Positions 1-8,634 of a stretch of 8,634 bases of DNA are shown in pieces (positions within the stretch are counted from its first letter, which is position 1; every line of letters starts with the position of its first letter). The translations under genes were made by a program, and so were the position numbers. The stretch comes from a virus (lineage: Duplodnaviria > Heunggongvirae > Uroviricota > Caudoviricetes). The notes under the pieces were generated by a model. That model did not search any database and was not told where the DNA came from. It was given only the letters and a program-made list of their open reading frames with translations. The stretch is from the IMG/VR virus record IMGVR_UViG_2541047932_000013, positions 1-8,634 of that record, one strand, 5' to 3'.

Positions 1-131
1 TGTGGTACCGAAAGACTTGCTGCCCCCATCTCGCGCCCGAGCGCGCAAAAGAAAACCCGCGCATAGGCGGGCTCCAGAAGCAGCGGTTCATTGAATGCTG
101 CGGCAATAATGTGTGAAAGATTACGTCTCAC
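1..131 (-). CDS. C: Partial gpC-like head protease/scaffold protein; only the N-terminal ~43 codons are inside the window
   Basis: Minus-strand translation from GTG at 129-131 gives (M)RRNLSHIIAAAFNEPLLLEPAYARVFFCALGREMGAASLSVP, matching the recalled lambda gpC N-terminus (LRNLPHIASMAFNEPLMLEPAYARVFFCALAG). GGAG lies about 10 nt upstream. The start overlaps the portal stop by 11 nt and the ORF runs off the window edge. Confidence 0.6.
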   Translation of the reverse strand, partial: MRRNLSHIIAAAFNEPLLLEPAYARVFFCALGREMGAASLSVP

Positions 132-1713
132 GGGGTGTTGTCTCCTCTTCCGGCCTGCGACTCTCCGCTATCTGCTGCTGATACGCCTGCGCTATCCACA
201 CCGGACGTGAGAGTCCGGCTTTTTGCCGCTCAGCAGATTCCCTGACCTGCTGGCGGAAAATGTCCTGATAATCCTCGCCCATCAGCGCCAGCTCTTTCTC
301 ATACGTGCTCAGTCCGGCCTCAATGCGCATCACCGATTCCTGAACCTCCTTGAGCCCGTCAATGGCCATTCTTCCGGCACCAATCCACTCTGCCCGTGAC
401 CAGGCTGATCGCGCCTGATAAAAATCAAAACGCGCCCGTGGCGGACGGATAATCCCCCGAAGAAGTGCCTCTTCCAGCCAGCAGGAAAACATCTGCGTGG
501 CCAGCCGGGCCGCAATAAATTTTCGCCGCCCCATAAAATAGCGCCACGACTCATTGGCAGAGGCCCTGGCACTTGAATAACTGACCTTCGAGTAATCACG
601 GGACAACTGTTCGTAGGAAACGCCAAGACCGGCGGCGATATACCGCAGCAGCGCCTGTTCAAGCGCCGAAAATCCATTGTCTGAATCCTGCGCAGTCTGT
701 AGTTTCAGATCATCCCCGGGGAAAAGGTGCGGAATTTTGACTCCGCCCAGCGTCACGCTATTCGTGTCATACCAGCTGGAGAACTTCTCCAGAATATTAA
801 TAAGCGGATTATCCTTCTGCTCCTGTGGCGCGCCGGCGATATATTCAAAGGCCTTTTCGGTATCAAGTTCACTTTCAATCGTCGCTGCATACATGGCTTT
901 CACAATGGCCGACTGAAGCTGTGTTGCCTGCAGGGAATCCAGCATCTTCAGCCGTTCCATGACGCTGTAAAACTGATTAGCCCCACGGGTCTGCCCGTCC
1001 TCCACCGGCTCGAAAATATGCAGCATGGCCGGACGCCCGGTGGGAAGTTCACGCGGGATCCGTTCCCATCGTCCACTCCCGGAGAACGGAAAATCATCCT
1101 CACAGATATGGTACGCAACGGCACGGCCATATCGATCGACCTCCACCCCGGCCCGCAGAAAACGGTTCCCCATACCGTGTCCTGGCGTGTCCACCCGTTT
1201 CGGACTCACGGCTTTAAAACGCGTACGAAACAGTTGCGTACTCTCCGTATCCCAGACCGGCTGCACAAAGATTTCGCCGTTAAACGCATGAACGCCCACA
1301 CCTTCACGGATAAATTCCGTAAACGTGCGTCTCCCTTCCACGTCGATCTCACCAAACATCCCTTCTGCGTATTCTGACCAGGCCGCCTCCACCTCATCGA
1401 CAAAACTTTTTGCCGCGGTCTCCCGCATCCCCAGCCAGCGCCAGTTCGGACGGTAGCTAATCAGAAACATATGCCCGACAATGTGATCCTTATGCAGGGC
1501 CACCGCATTGGCCGCTATTCCGTTATTGCGCACCAGATCATCTGCACGGGCATTCCCCAGACGCAACGCGGGCAGCAGGGCCGCATCGGCACTCTGCGAG
1601 GGTGGCAACCACTCTGCCATTTGCCCGCCAAATCCTGCACCGCCACCGTTGTAGCTGAGGCTCTCCCGAAGCGGAACGCCGTTCACATCAATCAGGACAG
1701 GCGTTCGTTTCAT
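121..1713 (-). CDS. B: Portal protein (lambda gpB family)
   Basis: 530-aa ORF of lambda gpB-like size (~533 aa) in the conserved order A-W-B-C. Its ATG overlaps the gpW stop in an ATGA arrangement. Confidence 0.88.
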   Translation of the reverse strand: MKRTPVLIDVNGVPLRESLSYNGGGAGFGGQMAEWLPPSQSADAALLPALRLGNARADDLVRNNGIAANAVALHKDHIVGHMFLISYRPNWRWLGMRETAAKSFVDEVEAAWSEYAEGMFGEIDVEGRRTFTEFIREGVGVHAFNGEIFVQPVWDTESTQLFRTRFKAVSPKRVDTPGHGMGNRFLRAGVEVDRYGRAVAYHICEDDFPFSGSGRWERIPRELPTGRPAMLHIFEPVEDGQTRGANQFYSVMERLKMLDSLQATQLQSAIVKAMYAATIESELDTEKAFEYIAGAPQEQKDNPLINILEKFSSWYDTNSVTLGGVKIPHLFPGDDLKLQTAQDSDNGFSALEQALLRYIAAGLGVSYEQLSRDYSKVSYSSARASANESWRYFMGRRKFIAARLATQMFSCWLEEALLRGIIRPPRARFDFYQARSAWSRAEWIGAGRMAIDGLKEVQESVMRIEAGLSTYEKELALMGEDYQDIFRQQVRESAERQKAGLSRPVWIAQAYQQQIAESRRPEEETTPRET

Positions 1714-1916
1714 AACCTCACTCCCAGCGGACGACGGCGACGGCGGGTTGTCCCCAGTACCGACTCCGCATCATTGATCGCCCGGTTAAGCTCATCCAGA
1801 GAAGCCGCCGTATATTCAATTCTGCGACCATCTTTCTGGACAGACACCACCCGTTTACCGGTTAATAAATCAAGGCGCGCCTGACGCAGCGCCTGCAGTT
1901 CAGCGACTGTAACCAT
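1710..1916 (-). CDS. W: Head-tail joining / head completion protein (lambda gpW family)
   Basis: 68-aa ORF MVTVAELQALRQARLDLLTGKRVVSVQKDGRRIEYTAAS... closely resembles recalled lambda gpW (…[26 protein letters not shown]…). Same length and position between terminase large subunit and portal. Confidence 0.85.
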   Translation of the reverse strand: MVTVAELQALRQARLDLLTGKRVVSVQKDGRRIEYTAASLDELNRAINDAESVLGTTRRRRRPLGVRL

Positions 1917-3828
1917 TCACTCCTCCGGACAGCTTCGCTGCCAGTTCTTTAAGGGTTGGCCGGGTCGTCTCTTCTTCCCGGGATTTTGCCAGTACAGCCA
2001 GATCAAGCTGCCAGCGTTGCACGGACACACGTAATGCCGCGTAGGCATACACCAGGCAGTCCAGCGCTTCGTTACGCCGCTTTTTGTTATCCCACAGCAG
2101 ACGCATCTTTCCTTTTTCCCACTTCTCCACAAGCTCTTCCGCCACCAGTTGCTGCGCCTCTGTCTGCGAAAAAATCTCCGGATCATCAGGAAAACGGATG
2201 GCATACGACGTGGCTTCATCCGCAGGCGTGGGATCGGCTTTCATACGGGCATAGAGAATTTCTTTTGCGGTGTCCGTCCCCACTTCGCACAGATACACGC
2301 CCCGCTGATTGCGGGTTTTTGGCATGGTGATCACCGGCTTGCCATAAACAGATGCACCTTTTACCGGCAGCACCCGGAAAACACCGTGTTTTTTTGACCT
2401 CTGATAGACAATTTCGCCATCGATCCCCCCGGTGTCCCAGCAGACACGGGAAATGGTCATTTCGGTTCCGTCTGCATGGCGGTATTTTTTGTTGATCGCC
2501 ACATCCACACGTAACAGCGTCTCTTCCTCATCGGGACGCCCCATAATGATGATTTTATCCACCAGAAAGGCTTCCTCTCCCGGAGCCCATCCCCAGACAT
2601 ACATCTCAAAACGGTTTCGCTGCGAGTCAATGCCCGCCGTCAGATAAACCACCCGGGAAGGCACCGCAGCCGTGTAACGCACAACCTTATCCATCAGCAC
2701 CTGGTGATCGAGTTTTTCGCCCACGGCCTCTTCCCAGGTCTCGCCCAGCGTGGTGTTCACAAAGGTTTTCAGGCCGTTGGGATCTTTCAGTGCATCCAGC
2801 CAGTCATAGACAATCTGTACCCAGGTGGTGAACGGACTGTACGCCGTCCAGATATGGAATGTGATGGAGCGCGGCGGCGGAATTTCATTATCCGCGGCGC
2901 TGAAAAACGTCAGACCGTCGCGGGTCCACATGCCCGTGTTTTCGCAGATCCACCGCCCGTTGCTCTGGTCAAGCTCAGACTGATGGATCACGCAGCCATG
3001 ATGTTCACAGAGGTAGAAAACGCTTTCGGGGCTGTCCTTCTCCCATTTAAGGCCAAAAGGCGTGGACTCATCGCCAAATTTCAGATACTGCGCCTCCCCA
3101 CAGTGCGGGCAGGACACATAAAAACGCATGAAATGCGCCGACTCGTTGGCCGCTTTTTCGATCTGGCAGGAGCCTTTTATTTTAGGCGTCGAGCCGCGAA
3201 TGGATTTTGGCCATACCGAGCCCTCAATACGCTTATCCCCCAGCAGGGTTGGCGAGCCCTCTTTTTCGACATCCGGCTCGAACGAGGAAAGTTCGTCATA
3301 GCAGACCACGTCCACGGATTTTTCACGGTAGTTTTTTGCTGCCGCACCACCCAGGCACCAGAAGCCCACCCCCGATGAAAAGCGTTTCAGCGTGAGAGTA
3401 TTGTCACGATGTTTACGACCCAGCCACGGGGAAAGGTCTTTCAGGCATGGCACGTCCCGAATCGTCGCCTCCACGTGAGACTTCATAAAATCTTCAGCGG
3501 CAGAATCCGTGGGCTGAAAAAGCAGACTGTTTCGGGATTTATGCTCAATAAAATACCCGGCGACTCCCAGCAACATCTTTGTATAGCCAACACGGGCAGA
3601 TTTAATCAGATTAACAGTGCGGATCTGATCATTCCCCATACTGTTCATGATGGCGATCTGGAACGGCAGCGTTTTCCATTCGCCGTCACCGTATGAGGAT
3701 TCTTTAGGCAGATAATAATACTGGTCAGCCCATTCAACTGCCGTCATCGGTACAACCCTGACCAGAGGCTGCAGCGCAACCGAAACGGCGGCCACCATAT
3801 TATTCAGTTGTTGCTCTGATATATTCAT
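1900..3828 (-). CDS. A: Terminase large subunit (lambda gpA family)
   Basis: Strong similarity along the whole length to recalled lambda gpA (TAVEWADQYYYLPKES…, KRFSSGVGFWCLGGAAAKNYREKSVD, WTAYSPFTTWVQIV, RNEALDCLVYAYAALR). The six-frame ORF extends to 3885, but the homologous start is the internal ATG at 3826-3828 (MNISEQQ… versus lambda MNISNSQ…). Confidence 0.9.
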   Translation of the reverse strand: MNISEQQLNNMVAAVSVALQPLVRVVPMTAVEWADQYYYLPKESSYGDGEWKTLPFQIAIMNSMGNDQIRTVNLIKSARVGYTKMLLGVAGYFIEHKSRNSLLFQPTDSAAEDFMKSHVEATIRDVPCLKDLSPWLGRKHRDNTLTLKRFSSGVGFWCLGGAAAKNYREKSVDVVCYDELSSFEPDVEKEGSPTLLGDKRIEGSVWPKSIRGSTPKIKGSCQIEKAANESAHFMRFYVSCPHCGEAQYLKFGDESTPFGLKWEKDSPESVFYLCEHHGCVIHQSELDQSNGRWICENTGMWTRDGLTFFSAADNEIPPPRSITFHIWTAYSPFTTWVQIVYDWLDALKDPNGLKTFVNTTLGETWEEAVGEKLDHQVLMDKVVRYTAAVPSRVVYLTAGIDSQRNRFEMYVWGWAPGEEAFLVDKIIIMGRPDEEETLLRVDVAINKKYRHADGTEMTISRVCWDTGGIDGEIVYQRSKKHGVFRVLPVKGASVYGKPVITMPKTRNQRGVYLCEVGTDTAKEILYARMKADPTPADEATSYAIRFPDDPEIFSQTEAQQLVAEELVEKWEKGKMRLLWDNKKRRNEALDCLVYAYAALRVSVQRWQLDLAVLAKSREEETTRPTLKELAAKLSGGVNGYSR

Positions 3829-4309
3829 CGAGTAAATCCGGTAATTTATCCCCTGCCCGCGCACACTGATTTGCCCCCTTCGCAATAAGGGTTTTCAGAT
3901 GGTCAAGATGGCGCGGTGTTAAATCAGGAAACTGTCGCTGCATGGATAAAGGGATGGAATCAAGCGTACTGGATAACGCCATTGCCAGCTTACTGAGGGC
4001 AAAAATACAGAACCCGGTGTCAATAAGTTTTCCTTTTGACACCTCATTTTTTAACTGCTGTGTAACAGCCTGTTCTGCTGTCAGTTCCCATCTGGCAATA
4101 AGCAATTTCTCCTCATAGTCGTCTTCGCTATCGCCATCAGGCACATCGTTTTTACTTCTCCTCAGATACGATATGTAAAAATCGCGCCAGGCATCCAGAT
4201 CCAGTTGCCCTCGCTTATTCGATATCGGGGCACCCGGTAATTTCTGCAATCTGCGAAGCTGGCGATCGGTCAGACTTAAATGCCTGGCAACTTCAGTCTG
4301 CGTAGCCAC
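3800..4309 (-). CDS. nu1: Terminase small subunit, Nu1-like, with a divergent N-terminal DNA-binding domain
   Basis: C-terminal half (DTGFCIFALSKLAMALSSTLDSIPLSMQRQFPDLTPRHLDHLK…LPDLLDEYI) matches the recalled lambda Nu1 gpA-interaction region. The N-terminal ~90 aa (MATQTEVARHLSLTDRQLRRLQ…) is HTH-like but not lambda-like. GTG start with GAGGTGAGGA immediately upstream; the 3' end overlaps the A start. Confidence 0.8.
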   Translation of the reverse strand: MATQTEVARHLSLTDRQLRRLQKLPGAPISNKRGQLDLDAWRDFYISYLRRSKNDVPDGDSEDDYEEKLLIARWELTAEQAVTQQLKNEVSKGKLIDTGFCIFALSKLAMALSSTLDSIPLSMQRQFPDLTPRHLDHLKTLIAKGANQCARAGDKLPDLLDEYIRATTE

Positions 4310-4346
4310 TCCTCACCTCGCAAAAACTCTCACCTCACAATCACAA

Positions 4347-4455
4347 CAAAACCGGTCATGTCCGGTTTACATGTCTGTTTTTTGTTCATGTCCGGTTCAC
4401 AGAAGACCTGTTTTTATATTTTTCATATAGTTAACTTGAAGAGAAACCGGACATG
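4347..4455. promoter_or_regulatory. cosB-like terminase binding region with three copies of a CATGTCCGGTT(y)AC element
   Basis: Seen directly: catgtccggtttac at 4347-4360, catgtccggttcac at 4387-4400, and the inverted copy aaccggacatg at 4445-4455. An AT-rich spacer (4401-4444) separates the second and third copies. The block lies between cosN and the nu1 start, as lambda R1/R2/R3 and I1 do. Confidence 0.6.
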
Positions 4456-4492
4456 GATCCCGGAAAATTTTCATAAATAGCGAAAACCCGCG

Positions 4493-4504
4493 AGGTCGCC
4501 GCCC
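4493..4504. other. cosN, the 12-nt cohesive-end sequence (reverse complement of GGGCGGCGACCT)
   Basis: Plus strand 4461-4504 is the exact reverse complement of the first 44 nt of the lambda left end as recalled (GGGCGGCGACCTCGCGGGTTTTCGCTATTTATGAAAATTTTCCG). The flanking 4505-4560 resembles the lambda right end (…CCGTAACC.GTCGGATC.CCGGAAAGGACC…). Confidence 0.85.
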
Positions 4505-4710
4505 CGTAACCGGTCGGATCGCCGGAAAGGACCCACGAAATGATAATGATTATCATCTATATAAGGTTTATCACAACATGTGTGTACGCCATCAAACCAC
4601 GAGAAATAATCAATTATGACGCAGGTATCGTATTAATTGATCTGCGTCAAATTAACGTAAAAGCAACTTCAGATAATACAAATCAGCAACACTGAATATG
4701 GGGAAACATT

Positions 4711-4896
4711 ATGTCATCAAAGAACAGAACCCGCAGAACAACAACCCGCAACATCCGATTTCCAAACCAGATGATTGAACAAATTAACATCGCTCTTGAT
4801 CTGAAAGGTTCAGGAAACTTTTCAGCGTGGGTTATTGAAGCCTGCAGAAGAAGGCTGTCAACAGAGAGTTCGGGTATGAATTACATAATTAAGTAA
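4711..4896 (+). CDS. Small basic protein, possibly a ribbon-helix-helix DNA-binding protein, of the kind found next to cos in lambdoid prophages (YlcI/DUF3950-like by recollection)
   Basis: 61-aa ORF MSSKNRTRRTTTRNIRFPNQMIEQINIALDLKGSGNFSAWVIEACRRRL…: basic N-terminus followed by a strand-helix-helix-like pattern. Transcribed opposite to the late operon. GGGGAAACATT lies upstream of the ATG. Confidence 0.55.
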   Translation: MSSKNRTRRTTTRNIRFPNQMIEQINIALDLKGSGNFSAWVIEACRRRLSTESSGMNYIIK

Positions 4897-5028
4897 CATG
4901 GTGTTCACAGAACACGCAGTTACCGGACACATCAGTTTTCCATTCGCTCCCCGGCAGTACAGGCTTCCCCTCTGACGGGATAGCCTGAAAAAATAACACA
5001 GAAAATTATTTGTTATAATTAATATAAC

Positions 5029-5169
5029 TTACTCAAAAAAAAGCGACGAGAAAATCAGCATCAACGAACAATAAGCGCCAATACGTGATAACAAATGGCA
5101 GCCATATTTATCTGCAGTATAAGCAATGGACAGGATAACCACACCAGAAACCGTCAGCATAAAATCCAT
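5029..5169 (-). CDS. Candidate 46-aa hydrophobic small protein (below the ORF-track length cutoff)
   Basis: Hand translation of the minus strand: MDFMLTVSGVVILSIAYTADKYGCHLLSRIGAYCSLMLIFSSLFFE, stop at 5029-5031. GGGGAAG lies 6 nt upstream of the ATG at 5167-5169. It sits in an AT-rich region where lambda carries bor. Confidence 0.3.
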   Translation of the reverse strand: MDFMLTVSGVVILSIAYTADKYGCHLLSRIGAYCSLMLIFSSLFFE

Positions 5170-5519
5170 TTGAACTTCCCCGGACAAAATCGACTCATCT
5201 AAAGATTTACAGCTCTTTTTATTATCAATATGTTAAAAGTAAAATAAACAGATGTTCAATAACACGAATACAAAAACGTGCTGAAATTCAATGAATCCAT
5301 TTCTGTGTCATCAATTAATAGTGATAAACATCCGGCTTCTTCCACCATCGCACCGGACAGGCGACTATGAGGGAACAACGCCGCGCTCCGTTAACGCGGT
5401 AAACCCCGGTGTGTATCGTTTTTGATTATCCCCGCACACTCGCGCAGAGGAGTCTCCCTGTCGGGCTGCGGTCTCTGTTAATGAGGGAATACAGCGACGA
5501 TACGGCGCATCAACAAAAC

Positions 5520-5987
5520 TTATTTCAGGCACTGAGTGCGGATATAGTCCTGTGCCCCTTCCAGTTGCTTGTGCATCGTCATCAGCCGCTCTCTGAGGGT
5601 GAAATAATCCCGTGTAACGGTGTCTGCCAGTTGGGGGCCGGTTGCATTATCCACGCCGGAGGTGGTGGGGGCTTCACGCACGGAGCCTGGACAGGTGGCG
5701 TTGATCCGCAGGCGCTTACGACCAGCGGCAACGTCAGCGCGAAGAGTTTCATTTTCAGCTCTCGCATCGGCTAATTCCTTCGTGTATCTGGCATCAAGCG
5801 CAGCGACATCTCGCTGGCGCTGCTGCATGTCAGTAATAGTGGCATTCGCCAGTTTCAGCTCACTGACTTTTTTATCGCGCTGCGCTTTGTAGGTGATGGC
5901 GTTATCGCGGTAATGATTCAGCCCCAGACTAAGCACACCACAGGCTACCAGCAGGACAATAATCACCACACACAGAACACGGTTCAT
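5520..5987 (-). CDS. Rz: Rz i-spanin (inner-membrane spanin subunit)
   Basis: Very close to recalled lambda Rz ([16 protein letters not shown]…[33 protein letters not shown]…[17 protein letters not shown]). The real start is most likely the internal ATG at 5985-5987 ([13 protein letters not shown]…, N-terminal TMD); the six-frame ORF's extension to 6071 is probably not translated. Confidence 0.9.
5582..5767 (-). CDS. Rz1: Rz1 o-spanin (outer-membrane lipoprotein spanin subunit), embedded in Rz in the +1 frame
   Basis: [61 protein letters not shown] matches recalled lambda Rz1 (…LPLVVVGC…[30 protein letters not shown]…). Lipobox VSAC and a proline-rich tract are present; the gene is fully nested in Rz. 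Confidence 0.88.
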
Positions 5988-6086
5988 ATCACCACCAACG
6001 GATTGCCCAGACCAGAACAGCAATGGCCACAATACGAATGGCAAATGCCATTGCCCGAATAAGTTCAGCACTCATCTTTTTAAAGT

Positions 6087-6200
6087 TCACGATTTCAGCG
6101 CAATGACCAGTTTTGCCAGCCCATACAGCATCGGAGACACAGCAATACCAACAGCCACCCACTTAATAGCAAAAGCCAGCGCTCTGCTGATGTCATCAGT
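6087..6200. repeat. Direct repeat, copy 1 (~114 bp, ~94% identical to 6352-6465)
   Basis: Hand alignment: 7 mismatches in 114 nt against the copy 265 bp downstream. The flanks differ on both sides. Confidence 0.9.
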
Positions 6201-6209
6201 CACTGTCAC
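6087..6209 (-). CDS. Candidate 40-aa membrane peptide, a paralog of the 6352..6534 ORF; no ATG, putative GTG start coupled to the upstream stop
   Basis: The minus frame encodes (M)TVTDDISRALAFAIKWVAVGIAVSPMLYGLAKLVIALKS. It differs from the downstream copy by one I/V substitution despite 7 nucleotide differences. GTG at 6207-6209 overlaps the TGA of the preceding ORF (GTGA). Confidence 0.3.
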   Translation of the reverse strand: MTVTDDISRALAFAIKWVAVGIAVSPMLYGLAKLVIALKS

Positions 6210-6337
6210 CCCAGCAGCCCCGACGAAGACAACATCATCCAGGCCATGGAAAGAAAAAGAGCAACCAGCATTAGTGAAAATGAAATGCCGACAATTACAC
6301 AGAGGATCTTCGCCAGCGTTATGAGTTTGTCTGACAT
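6206..6337 (-). CDS. Candidate 43-aa hydrophobic membrane peptide
   Basis: MSDKLITLAKILCVIVGISFSLMLVALFLSMAWMMLSSSGLLG, with a strong SD (GGGAGGA) 6 nt upstream of the ATG at 6335-6337. It begins 14 nt after the stop of the upstream small ORF. The six-frame ORF 6206..6427 has an unlikely N-terminal extension. Confidence 0.4.
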   Translation of the reverse strand: MSDKLITLAKILCVIVGISFSLMLVALFLSMAWMMLSSSGLLG

Positions 6338-6351
6338 GCTTAATCCTCCCT

Positions 6352-6465
6352 TCACGATTTCAACGCAATGACCAGTTTTGCCAGCCCATACAGCATCGGG
6401 GACACAGCAACACCGACCGCCACCCACTTAATGGCAAAAGCCAGTGCTCTGCTGATGTCATCAGT
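6352..6465. repeat. Direct repeat, copy 2
   Basis: See copy 1. Confidence 0.9.
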
Positions 6466-6534
6466 TACAGGCGCTTTCAGTTCAAGGCCATTTTTCATAG
6501 TCAACCTCAACAGAATTCGTTTATACTTCGCCAT
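6352..6534 (-). CDS. Candidate small membrane peptide (60 aa from the ATG at 6532-6534, or 48 aa from the ATG at 6496-6498)
   Basis: …MKNGLELKAPVTDDISRALAFAIKWVAVGVAVSPMLYGLAKLVIALKS. GAGG lies 6 nt upstream of the 6498 start and GGGAG 3 nt upstream of the 6534 start. The C-terminal 38 codons are duplicated at 6087-6200. Confidence 0.4.
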   Translation of the reverse strand: MAKYKRILLRLTMKNGLELKAPVTDDISRALAFAIKWVAVGVAVSPMLYGLAKLVIALKS

Positions 6535-6567
6535 GTTCTCCCTTGCCTTACTCAAGGTCAGAAACAC

Positions 6568-6600
6568 AAAACCCCGCTTGGTGCCAATAAACGGGGTTTT
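6568..6600. terminator. Bidirectional intrinsic-terminator-like hairpin between the endolysin and the small-peptide ORFs
   Basis: AAAACCCCG (6568-6576), a 15-nt loop, then CGGGGTTTT (6592-6600): a 9-bp GC-rich stem. T-rich sequence follows on the plus strand (TTACTTTTATT) and on the minus strand (TTTTGTGTTTCTG). Confidence 0.5.
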
Positions 6601-6690
6601 TACTTTTATTCACTTACGTTTCGCCAGTTCGCAGGATTTCATGTTATCCGCCCGCGTGGCCATGCCTTATTTTTCAGCAAAATATTCTGC

Positions 6691-7224
6691 TTATCTGTCG
6701 ATACCCCAGCACGCCAGCGCGCTCTCCTGGTCACGACGGGATACCTGACCGTAGCAGTTGTTTGAACGAATACGGCAGTCTCTGCCACCGTCCTTAATCC
6801 ACCAGCGAATCGCCTCACATGCTCCCCTGCGATCACCAGCATTAATTCGTCTGTAAAACGTCGACGGGAAACACTTACCGGGACCAATGTTGTACGGACA
6901 GAATGACGCGATCCCCGCTTTCTGGGGTTCGGTCAATGGCACTTTGATGTTTTTCTCCACCCATGCCAGCGCCTTATCACGTTCGATGGCGTTAACCTGG
7001 TCGCATTTCTCCTTCGACAACTTCATGCCCGGGACGACAGGTTTACCATCCACCAGAATGGCACCGCGACAGATGGTCCAGATACCCGCGCCATCACGGT
7101 ATGCCGTGGTGTGGTTACCTTCCTTTTCATCCAGAAACTGGTCGAGAATGTCAGGCGCAGGCGCACCAGCGGCAATCAGCGCCAGAACGGCAGCCGACAG
7201 GCCGTATTTGATTTTGGTGTTCAT
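6691..7224 (-). CDS. R: Endolysin, T4-lysozyme-type (GH24), with an N-terminal signal-anchor-release-like hydrophobic segment
   Basis: 177-aa ORF. N-terminal KYGLSAAVLALIAAGAPA hydrophobic stretch, followed by a lysozyme catalytic E…D…T spacing (EKEGNHTTAYRDGAGIWT). It is partnered with an S21-type pinholin. Confidence 0.85.
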   Translation of the reverse strand: MNTKIKYGLSAAVLALIAAGAPAPDILDQFLDEKEGNHTTAYRDGAGIWTICRGAILVDGKPVVPGMKLSKEKCDQVNAIERDKALAWVEKNIKVPLTEPQKAGIASFCPYNIGPGKCFPSTFYRRINAGDRRGACEAIRWWIKDGGRDCRIRSNNCYGQVSRRDQESALACWGIDR

Positions 7225-7260
7225 GGATATATTAAATATTCAGCCGCTGTCCCTGGCCCA

Positions 7261-7818
7261 CTAAATACGCACTTTAAGATAAGTCAGCCCCGGATGAAGC
7301 CAGTAAGCCGGCACTTTTTTAAAGGGTGGAGTATTAAAATCACGAAGAAGAGCCTCCCGCACAATTGCATCCTTATCAGCACCACTGGCCAGCGCTTCAA
7401 TCTCAGCGGCTACCTGAAGATATCCCATGCAACGGCCAACGCGCTTCATCAGCCCCTGCTTTTTATTGTTCTTCAGGTAATCAATGGCAAATTCAATGAG
7501 CTCCTCACTGTGCTGGTGCAATGGAGGTGTTACTTTCCCATTTTCTGAGATGGTTATTTTCCCGGCATCACCGGATACAACAAAGGATGGCCGGTTACAC
7601 TCCCATTCCAGGTTACTGAAATTATCATTATGAATACTGAAACACTCTGAGAGATTTCTGCTCATCACTTTCCGACAATAATCGTCAAACGCAGCAAACT
7701 GCTCATCGCGGCGTTTTTTTTCATCTTCAGAAGGCATCAGCGTCGACAGTTTTTTATTCAGTTCAGCAATTTCATTTTCCAGACGACTGAAGCGCTGATT
7801 CATTTCTTCATGGTTCAT
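7261..7818 (-). CDS. Hypothetical 185-aa soluble protein with an N-terminal coiled-coil-like segment, inserted between holin and endolysin
   Basis: ATG at 7816-7818 lies directly after the holin stop (7822-7824), with GGGGAG upstream. No TM segment or signal peptide is visible; the N-terminus reads EEMNQRFSRLENEIAELNKKLSTL. The sequence is visibly more AT-rich than the neighbouring lysis genes. No family recognised. Confidence 0.6.
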   Translation of the reverse strand: MNHEEMNQRFSRLENEIAELNKKLSTLMPSEDEKKRRDEQFAAFDDYCRKVMSRNLSECFSIHNDNFSNLEWECNRPSFVVSGDAGKITISENGKVTPPLHQHSEELIEFAIDYLKNNKKQGLMKRVGRCMGYLQVAAEIEALASGADKDAIVREALLRDFNTPPFKKVPAYWLHPGLTYLKVRI

Positions 7819-7821
7819 CAC

Positions 7822-8028
7822 CTAATCTCCCCGGGCAGCCTTGCGACGGTCCTCTCTGATTTTGAAATACAGGTTAGTCAGATACGTCAGCAGGCCAAAC
7901 AGCAGACTCCCCAGCACACCTATCGCCACCCACTGGGACGGAGAGACTTTGTCCAGCAGCTGCAGTAACCAGTATCCCGTCCCCACCGCTGACGTGGTGT
8001 ATGACACACCCGTTGTGATTTTTTCCAT
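7822..8028 (-). CDS. S: Class II holin (pinholin), phage 21 S21-like
   Basis: 68 aa: [68 protein letters not shown]. It is nearly colinear with the S21 pinholin as recalled (two TMDs, …[14 protein letters not shown]…[21 protein letters not shown]). Confidence 0.88.
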
Positions 8029-8069
8029 CTGATGTATGTCTCCGTCACCGCCGACAGAAAATGAAAGTA

Positions 8070-8108
8070 AAGGAAAACAAAAAGCCGCCAGTGTCGCCCA
8101 CTGACGGC
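8070..8108 (-). terminator. tR'-like intrinsic terminator upstream of the holin (minus strand)
   Basis: On the minus strand: stem GCCGTCAGTG / CACTGGCGGC (10 bp, one mismatch; plus 8084-8108) followed by TTTTTGTTTTCC. It ends about 40 nt upstream of the holin start, the position of the terminator read through by Q in lambdoid phages. Confidence 0.5.
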
Positions 8109-8187
8109 CAACGCCGGGAGCCGTGATTATGGCATTCAGGCTCTGCTAAAAATGCCAGATAACATTCCGGCTCCCCCCCTGATTCAG

Positions 8188-8214
8188 GTTATAAATGACA
8201 CAATATCTTGACAA
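8188..8214 (-). promoter_or_regulatory. Candidate late promoter (pR'-like): -35 TTGTCA and -10 TATAAC on the minus strand
   Basis: Minus-strand reading TTGTCA-(15 nt)-TATAAC, about 80-110 nt upstream of the tR'-like hairpin. The spacer is short and Q was not seen in the window, so this is tentative. Confidence 0.25.
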
Positions 8215-8287
8215 CACCCATCACTGTCTGTCAGAAAATGTACTGCCAGATATAAGTATCATGTGAAACCCAACTATCCTTCTTAGC

Positions 8288-8329
8288 CAGTACTTCTCCG
8301 ACGAAAGTCAGTACTGGCTGTTTTTTTAT
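8288..8329 (+). terminator. Plus-strand intrinsic terminator hairpin abutting the stop of the partial upstream ORF
   Basis: CCAGTACT…AGTACTGG (8-bp stem, 15-nt loop with an internal GAC/GTC pair) followed by CTGTTTTTTTATT on the plus strand. The minus-strand reading has only an A-run before the stem and no U-tract after it. Confidence 0.45.
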
Positions 8330-8634
8330 TATGCTGCCGGTGCATTTATCTCCAGCACCAGACTTTCTATCTCAACGCCATACGCTGCATTTTTTGTAAC
8401 ATCCGTCAGCGTCAGCGCATTCAGTCCCAGTGTCAGACTGTCTTTTATAACCTGGAATGCCGGGCCAGCCACTCCATTCAGTTTCGGAGTAACCGTGGCA
8501 CTGCCGGCGGTGAACACCAGCTCCAGCGTCTGCCAGTCGTTACCGTAATCGCCGAACTCCCCCAGCTTCGTGTTTCCGGCTTTCCTGTGATGCATCAGAT
8601 TCACTCTGCCGTCAGTGGTCTGAGTGAAGTACGA
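8329..8634 (-). CDS. Partial ORF of unknown function (C-terminal ≥101 aa; N-terminus beyond the window edge)
   Basis: The reading frame is open from the window edge to the stop at 8329-8331 (…TLELVFTAGSATVTPKLNGVAGPAFQVIKDSLTLGLNALTLTDVTKNAAYGVEIESLVLEINAPAA). It is beta-rich-looking and not Q-like (no Cys/His zinc motif). It sits in the slot between the Q region and the lysis genes where lambdoid phages carry cargo. Confidence 0.45.
   Translation of the reverse strand, partial: SYFTQTTDGRVNLMHHRKAGNTKLGEFGDYGNDWQTLELVFTAGSATVTPKLNGVAGPAFQVIKDSLTLGLNALTLTDVTKNAAYGVEIESLVLEINAPAA

Follow-up and report, generated by a model that had tools for sequence, protein, structure and literature searches.

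A DUF1327-less member of a modular gene family as probable exchangeable cargo between pinholin and lysozyme in E. coli lambdoid prophages

The DNA analysed here (the window) is a stretch of 8,634 nt from a member of the Caudoviricetes (IMG/VR record IMGVR_UViG_2541047932_000013, positions 1 to 8,634), with genes arranged on the minus strand as in the late operon of a lambdoid phage. In the direction of reading, the C-terminus of a DUF6645 (NanS-p-like) protein (8332-8634) is followed by an S21-type pinholin (7822-8028; Phage_holin_2_1 / P21 holin S, PF04971, E 9e-33), the open reading frame that is the subject of this study (the target; 7261-7818), a SAR-type, RrrQ-like lysozyme with a hydrophobic N-terminus (6691-7224; Phage_lysozyme, PF00959, E 1e-24, and the RefSeq annotation of near-identical loci), several small ORFs, and Rz and Rz1 (5520-6071 and 5582-5767), beyond which lie Nu1, the large terminase subunit, gpW and the portal. 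An allele survey classed the holin as single-start: the in-frame codons upstream of its ATG at 8028 (8029-8040) read GAC ATA CAT CAG (DIHQ) and include no second Met, and at other loci the corresponding codons are GGT ATG TAC CAG (GMYQ), a dual-start arrangement resembling S21-71/68. Because its holin is the single-start allele, the prophage of the window may make no N-terminally extended antiholin.

Several further features flank the lysis genes. Between the lysozyme and Rz, a 118-nt direct repeat (6086-6203 and 6351-6468; 93% identical, spacing 265 nt) gives two paralogous small hydrophobic minus-strand ORFs (6087-6209 and 6352-6567; phrog_1115), and further small ORFs belong to phrog_4906. 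The sequence between Rz and Nu1 at 4350-5400 is AT-rich (36-42% GC), includes a plus-strand DUF3950 (YnfO-like) ORF running against the late operon (4711-4896), and resembles a further cargo region. On the minus strand, some 55 nt before the start of the holin, a terminator-like hairpin (8083-8109; 11 pairs, 7 of them GC, then a T-run) may be a site that Q-modified polymerase reads through.

The target comprises 185 codons plus a stop on the minus strand, from an ATG at 7818 to a TAG at 7261-7263, and was delimited from the ORF list, the sequence itself and a match to the phrog_1085 profile. An in-frame GTG at 7821 would lengthen the product by one residue; the ATG form is the one annotated by RefSeq in a locus 99.3% identical on an E. 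coli chromosome (product 'hypothetical protein'). The initial annotation had described a soluble, AT-rich ORF without a transmembrane segment, wedged between pinholin and endolysin under late control, and this description was confirmed by the sequence and by the PF04971 and PF00959 neighbours. The GC content of the target is 44.6%, ten points poorer than both the holin (54.6%) and the lysozyme (54.9%), and no transmembrane segment was detected in its product (maximum 19-residue Kyte-Doolittle mean 0.75; pI 6.5). The ATG lies 3 nt past the holin stop and the lysozyme starts 36 nt past the target stop. A simple scan of the coding strand from 5400 to 8634 found no sigma-70-like promoter, and Rfam and tRNA scans of the window gave no match. 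The exact protein is present on 84 public contigs, always named 'hypothetical protein', and one IMG/VR contig is identical to the window in holin, target and lysozyme alike.

Structure prediction, which the initial annotation had proposed, resolved the target into two parts. A first AF2 run using E. coli relatives only was confident for an N-terminal hairpin alone, left the C-terminal domain (D) at pLDDT below 50, and was discarded. The second run added distant homologues from a profile search and from a search of 1.84 billion representatives (36 matches in all), and reached a mean pLDDT of 81.8 and a pTM of 0.61, with D at about 90. In this model, helices 3-27 and 31-55 form an antiparallel hairpin (pLDDT 76-93), which constitutes module B (residues 1-55; 7654-7818, minus strand), and a disordered linker (54-70) leads to module D (residues 70-185, about 115 aa; 7264-7611, minus strand), delimited by the AF2 model and conserved columns. 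The hairpin displays a heptad-like 3-4 spacing of hydrophobic residues (M6, F10, L13, I17, L20, L24, L27), and a coiled-coil criterion was satisfied for residues 6-27 and roughly 41-56 only. The earlier description of the target as a coiled-coil protein therefore holds for residues 3-55, about one third of the chain; residues 70-185 are predicted to be globular alpha/beta. As modelled, module B would probably make the target oligomeric.

Domain D is predicted to contain strands at 80-84, 87-92 and 95-97 and helices at 101-117, 123-144, 151-161 and 178-184. Alignments of the family (A3 and A4; 26 sequences, down to 25% identity) define the motif H-x-H ... GRCMGYLQVAAEIEA ... DFxxPPFKxxPxxWxxPGxxYLKxR, and its family positions (H103, G128-R129, L134-Q135, A137, P164-P165, K167, W173, P176-G177 and Y180-L181) are present in the target. 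Codon 101 of the target (7516-7518), directly before the conserved H-x-H, encodes Leu (PPLHQH), and nearly all relatives have Ser there. Invariant or near-invariant positions are mostly hydrophobic, Gly or Pro, in addition to H103, R129, Q135, E139, K167, W173 and Y180, and position 130, Cys in the target, is Ser or Ala in some members. Since the conserved positions are mostly hydrophobic, Gly or Pro, with only a few polar or aromatic residues of surface type, we infer that D is more in keeping with a binding domain than with an enzyme. A confident match to a characterised family of mundane function had been named in advance as a possible refutation, and none turned up: no relatives of D were found in Pfam, NCBIfam, PADLOC, PDB or BFVD, a profile search of D against PDB sequences gave nothing below E 0.03, and Pfam, NCBIfam and PADLOC scans of the whole target returned only sub-threshold coiled-coil matches (for example, Relaxase_C at E 0.09).

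Alignments and translations of genes from the same slot reveal a modular family, composed of module A (DUF1327, about 75 aa), module B (GC about 40% in the target), an optional insert beginning YSITVKSAGEEG, and one of two alternative C-terminal domains, D or E, the latter exemplified by the 161-aa Stx2a phage protein BCI49172. The combinations found were A, A+B, A+B+D, A+D, B+D, B+insert+D, A+B+E and B+E, so that the hairpin also precedes C-terminal domains other than D. The target is a B+D form and has no DUF1327. Its match to phrog_1085 (E 2e-111) spans residues 1-185 and profile positions 117-296 of 296 only; the profile describes a long form with no known function, the DUF1327 part of which is not covered by the target. 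The B+D architecture without DUF1327 also occurs in Salmonella enterica diarizonae, in a homologue 32% identical to the target, so that B+D is a stand-alone unit.

The initial annotation had named ydfR of the Qin prophage as a gene at the equivalent position, while holding that homology to it could not be established. The position proved correct, with E. coli K-12 Qin reading essQ-ydfR-rrrQ-rzpQ, and the question of homology can now be settled. PF07041 (DUF1327) did not match the target at E up to 1 (long relatives match at 9e-41), and BLASTP of the target against K-12 YdfR gave no alignment. Proteins of 287-296 aa annotated as 'YdfR family' match the target at 85-87% identity over their C-terminal two thirds (about 106-296), and residues 1-74 of a 296-aa A+B+D protein share 81% identity with K-12 YdfR. 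The target and YdfR are thus connected through domain fusion and a shared locus, rather than by common descent of the whole protein.

The target is also a recombinant: its 5′ part matches B+E genes and the remainder matches A+B+D genes. In megablast comparisons with phages and E. coli genomes, using a 561-nt query running from window position 7821 down to 7261 (the GTG included), query positions 1-191 were 97-98% identical to B+E genes and positions 119-561 were 98.9% identical to 296-aa A+B+D genes, marking 7704-7821 (minus strand) as a 5′ segment of different ancestry. A 233-aa reverse-strand ORF (L090 2735-3436, minus strand; also in L013) overlaps the 3′ part of the B+E or A+B+E slot gene by about 250 nt and has no Pfam match; either of these two ORFs may be the real gene there.

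Long forms of the family can be obscured in public annotation. In E. coli C9 (NZ_CP059281.1; L004 2550-3443), a DUF1327+B+D ORF of 297 aa is intact, and the RefSeq/PGAP feature there, an 'incomplete YdfR family' pseudogene, stops after the first 336 nt and leaves the D part unannotated. At least in this genome, the one that was checked, the label hides the D domain. A pseudogene reading of unannotated RefSeq matches was considered and rejected for the C9 locus, where the ORF is intact. Among the E. coli genomes searched, fourteen more rows contain the same match, at 98.4-98.9% identity and with no feature annotated beneath it.

Five independent B+D genes were inspected and each was intact, and pairwise dN/dS between B+D genes was 0.17-0.30 over the whole gene in every comparison with dS of at least 0.1, with similar values when modules B and D were taken separately. 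The target is under purifying selection (dN/dS about 0.2-0.3).

The genes of this family occupy a site with sharp edges. In blastn comparisons of the window with loci holding other slot contents (L007, L018, L004, L090 and L080), homology ends at 7814 and returns at 7230, delimiting an exchangeable cassette at 7231-7813 on the minus strand. The sharp boundaries and the AT-richness are as expected for exchangeable cargo. The initial annotation had also described a start immediately after the holin stop with a Shine-Dalgarno sequence of the gene's own. The gene does start there, but neither the start position nor the Shine-Dalgarno sequence belongs to it alone. The Shine-Dalgarno sequence GGGGAG (7827-7832, minus strand) falls within the final codons of the holin and precedes the ATG by 8 nt, and an alignment of slot starts from six loci indicates that all slot genes share both GGGGAG near the 3′ end of the holin gene and a start codon 4-5 nt past its stop. 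Because every gene after this holin uses GGGGAG, including the lysozyme of the empty-slot locus L080, which starts at the same position, the motif is part of the conserved flank. Cargo ORFs are swapped behind a constant translation start.

To see how the slot is filled elsewhere, S21-type cassettes were surveyed, as had been proposed at the outset, among the 80 best IMG/VR matches to the window holin, a sample of best matches rather than a random draw and one that includes redundant prophages; the lysozyme was located in 70. A lysozyme directly after the holin had been taken as the canonical arrangement, and this is true of 22 of the 70 cassettes, in which a different lysozyme (28-34% identical to that of the window) abuts or overlaps the holin. 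The remaining 48 carry the window's lysozyme type, and among these the slot is filled in 47, with holin and lysozyme adjacent in a single case (L080). Most often, the occupant is a DUF1327 N-terminus without other modules (28/48, mostly 114-116 aa), followed by a reverse-strand 104-aa ORF alone (8/48), B+D (6/48, four of them also with the reverse ORF), DUF1327+B+D (2/48), DUF1327+B+E (2/48) and DUF1327+B (1/48). An occupied slot is therefore the rule, not the exception, in cassettes with this lysozyme type, and with ydfR in the same slot of Qin the target is no anomaly. Across complete E. coli genomes, 811 of 5426 (about 15%) match part of the target DNA and 278 match at least 80% of it.

As the holin lies directly beside the lysozyme in 23 of the 70 sampled cassettes overall, and others hold unrelated contents, the slot gene appears to be dispensable for lysis. 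Replacement of the antiholin by the slot gene was considered and rejected, because the dual-start (GMYQM) and single-start (DIHQM) holin alleles both occur with empty, A-only and B+D slots. Neither of the features expected of an antiholin or lysis regulator, a holin-like membrane topology or a genetic link to the holin, was found, given the lack of a transmembrane segment and the independence of slot content from holin allele.

Distant homologues place D genes in late regions of quite different construction. Contigs of Salmonella enterica diarizonae, and others related to them, encode a B+D protein of 165-190 aa upstream of the holin, in the order Q ... DUF4406, B+D, a reverse DUF1883 gene and holin; the holin is Phage_holin_2_3 in two contigs and Phage_holin_2_1 in a third, and lysozyme and Rz come next in the contig that extends far enough. 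A metagenome contig encodes a D protein, then a reverse 105-aa gene, then a GH108 endolysin, while another genome has a lambda-type Phage_holin_3_1, a 138-aa ORF, a 206-aa B+insert+D protein and a reverse 101-aa gene. D genes are thus found in the late region, on the same strand as the lysis genes, beside Phage_holin_2_1, Phage_holin_2_3, Phage_holin_3_1 and a GH108 endolysin, and such a range of four unrelated families speaks against any one holin or endolysin being a specific partner.

A second gene recurs beside D. The reverse gene phrog_1853 (about 104 aa) lies tail-to-tail with D in phage 86 and many E. coli loci, with 16-19 nt between the aligned gene ends in the E. coli loci. Tail-to-tail pairs are known from three deep lineages in all (L002 3359-3673, minus strand; also L011, L042, L088, L095 and L096-L102), and homologues of phrog_1853 with 42% (L088) and 29% (L095; E 4e-10) identity follow D genes only 29-36% identical to that of the window. 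Pfam, NCBIfam and PADLOC gave no match to phrog_1853, and no consensus sigma-70 site emerged from a simple scan upstream of it in phage 86. The two genes are not always paired: D occurs without phrog_1853 in seven E. coli loci and the window, where tblastn found nothing phrog_1853-like at E up to 10 and only 36 nt separate the target from the lysozyme, and phrog_1853 occurs without D in eight loci. Enrichment is weak, with phrog_1853 present in 4 of 8 cassettes with D and 8 of 40 without it (48 cassettes of the window's lysozyme type). At least one slot holding phrog_1853 only, that of L032, is a deletion derivative of a fuller cassette, because the first 11 codons of a DUF1327 gene remain there (3209-3244) and run into a stop (MNKQYELVVK, then stop). 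Divergence of D and phrog_1853 is correlated (Spearman 0.79, loci partly redundant), and this co-variation was set aside as uninformative, since linkage of the genes alone predicts it. The recurrent phrog_1853 neighbour offers the sole lead to the function of D, and a circumstantial one.

Taken together, the target is very probably genuine, selected late-operon cargo, namely the DUF1327-less B+D isoform of a modular family that occupies a fixed docking site between pinholin and SAR lysozyme in E. coli lambdoid prophages. Its function can be proposed far more tentatively. In the reading that we favour, which may well prove wrong, the target is an oligomeric binding protein of the cytoplasm that is expressed late and takes part in phage-phage or prophage conflict. 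Under this proposal, the target would be produced alongside the lysis proteins and at no earlier stage of the lytic cycle, would not be needed for lysis, and would bind and neutralise another protein, for which the best candidate would be the phrog_1853 product. Because the prophage of the window lacks phrog_1853, the target would here be an orphan 'late-strand half' of a two-gene module, acting on partners from co-resident or rival lambdoid prophages. Against the proposal, the Salmonella lineage has an unrelated reverse DUF1883 gene in place of phrog_1853. Among the three titles listed for DUF1883, none deals with phage defence. In PADLOC-DB 2.0, no family matched the target at E up to 0.1, and other slot proteins gave two weak, non-significant matches only.

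The main rival to a role in conflict is that the target regulates the timing of lysis from the cytoplasm, binding either a portion of the pinholin exposed to the cytoplasm, such as the charged tail at its C-terminus, or a host factor that determines when triggering occurs. This idea, which draws on analogy with the antiholin cofactor RIII of phage T4, would account for the location of the gene in or beside the lysis cassette and on the lysis-gene strand in every lineage examined, for its close translational coupling to the holin, and for its company in the window with a holin that does not have the upstream Met of the dual-start allele. However, slot content is uncorrelated with the single-start or dual-start allele, the gene is absent from many otherwise identical cassettes, and D genes accompany four unrelated holin/endolysin families and lie upstream of the holin in the Salmonella lineage. 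The target also has no transmembrane segment, and the swapping of domains (D or E, with or without DUF1327) would be unusual for a protein tuned to one lysis partner. We consider a lysis-timing regulator unlikely on this balance.

A more specific version of the conflict reading would make D and phrog_1853 together an undescribed two-gene phage-phage conflict module at a cassette-exchange site. The antisense half would defend lysogens, the late half would serve as antidote or counter-defence, and the window would carry only the late half, as orphan counter-defence against rival lambdoid prophages. In this full form, the scheme is speculative and quite unlikely to hold in every part.

An improbable alternative is that the target modulates host RNA metabolism, like the DUF1327 domain to which D is often fused, acting on RNase E, the degradosome or RNA during late expression. 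The one experimental datum for the family concerns E. coli K-12 YdfR, residues 1-72 of which interact in two-hybrid and pull-down assays with the N-terminal, catalytic half of RNase E; RNA is also recovered along with purified YdfR (PMC13232886). The E. coli forms met most often join D to DUF1327, and an N-terminus resembling DUF1327 is present in more distant D proteins too. However, the window protein has no DUF1327, fusion indicates functional association and not the same activity, and structure comparisons detected no RNA-binding fold. YdfR overproduction, moreover, had little effect on the transcriptome (PMC13232886).

The target could also be a prophage defence or exclusion effector in its own right, acting through abortive infection or superinfection exclusion against competing phages. 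The gene lies in a variable prophage cargo slot, is low in GC and undergoes modular shuffling of a kind typical for conflict genes, but PADLOC yielded no match and the protein displays no enzymatic or membrane-active features. In addition, the gene is embedded in the late operon with no promoter of its own detected, and for that reason is probably silent in lysogens. A direct defence role is decidedly improbable. The weakest alternative, also foreseen by the initial annotation, is a functionless remnant of a long DUF1327-B-D gene after 5′ loss, and despite the existence of longer, commoner forms and of slot-gene deletion derivatives (L032, which keeps 11 codons, and the frameshifted L016), it is largely refuted and barely credible given selection on both modules, the intact B+D genes, hundreds of full-length database copies, a proper start at the common docking site and the same B+D architecture in the 32%-identical Salmonella homologue.

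The carriers of target-matching sequence include Stx-converting phages of pathogenic strains, and, from its operon position, the gene is co-transcribed with those that release phage and toxin. Were D to control the timing of lysis, it would affect the release of toxin; were it to act in prophage conflict, it would add a new fold and a new lambdoid cassette-exchange hotspot to the repertoire of defence and counter-defence. The gene is tractable to experiment.

The closest known relatives are the long phrog_1085 forms, such as gp05 of the Stx2-converting phage 86 (YP_794052.1, 268 aa) and the 296-aa E. coli proteins (P0033). These share with the target the S21-type holin-lysozyme slot and a D domain that is 82-99% identical, and the 287-296-aa forms share the same B hairpin; unlike the target, they carry an N-terminal DUF1327, and phage 86 gp05 is without B. 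Qin YdfR (DUF1327, PF07041, 103 aa) has the identical genomic position and corresponds to the N-terminal module of the long relatives, but has no detectable sequence similarity to the target, and its RNase E binding maps to a domain that the target does not have. More generally, the target resembles the morons of lambdoid late operons, which include lambda bor and lom and the stx genes and nanS-p upstream of S, in being non-essential cargo in or beside the late or lysis unit, of atypical composition and patchy distribution (for the stx-S region, PMC8136144 and PMC10462455). In contrast to the target, which is cytoplasmic and coupled to the holin, these morons are either driven by promoters of their own or encode secreted or membrane proteins whose roles are known. 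Two reviews of the Stx-phage lysis region treat holin, lysozyme, Rz and the stx-S interval, with the slot gene absent from both (PMC8136144, PMC10462455). T4 RIII, described as a cytoplasmic antiholin cofactor in lysis timing (PMC8385771), is likewise a small, soluble, helical cytoplasmic phage protein; the likeness is one of functional analogy only, and no sequence or fold relationship was found. Our literature search returned no paper that mentions the target protein. Lambdoid late regions are rich in uncharacterised cargo, and nothing about the target contradicts expectation for such regions; what is new here is the module map, the description of the docking site, a confident model of an undescribed domain, and its recurrent convergent neighbour, phrog_1853.
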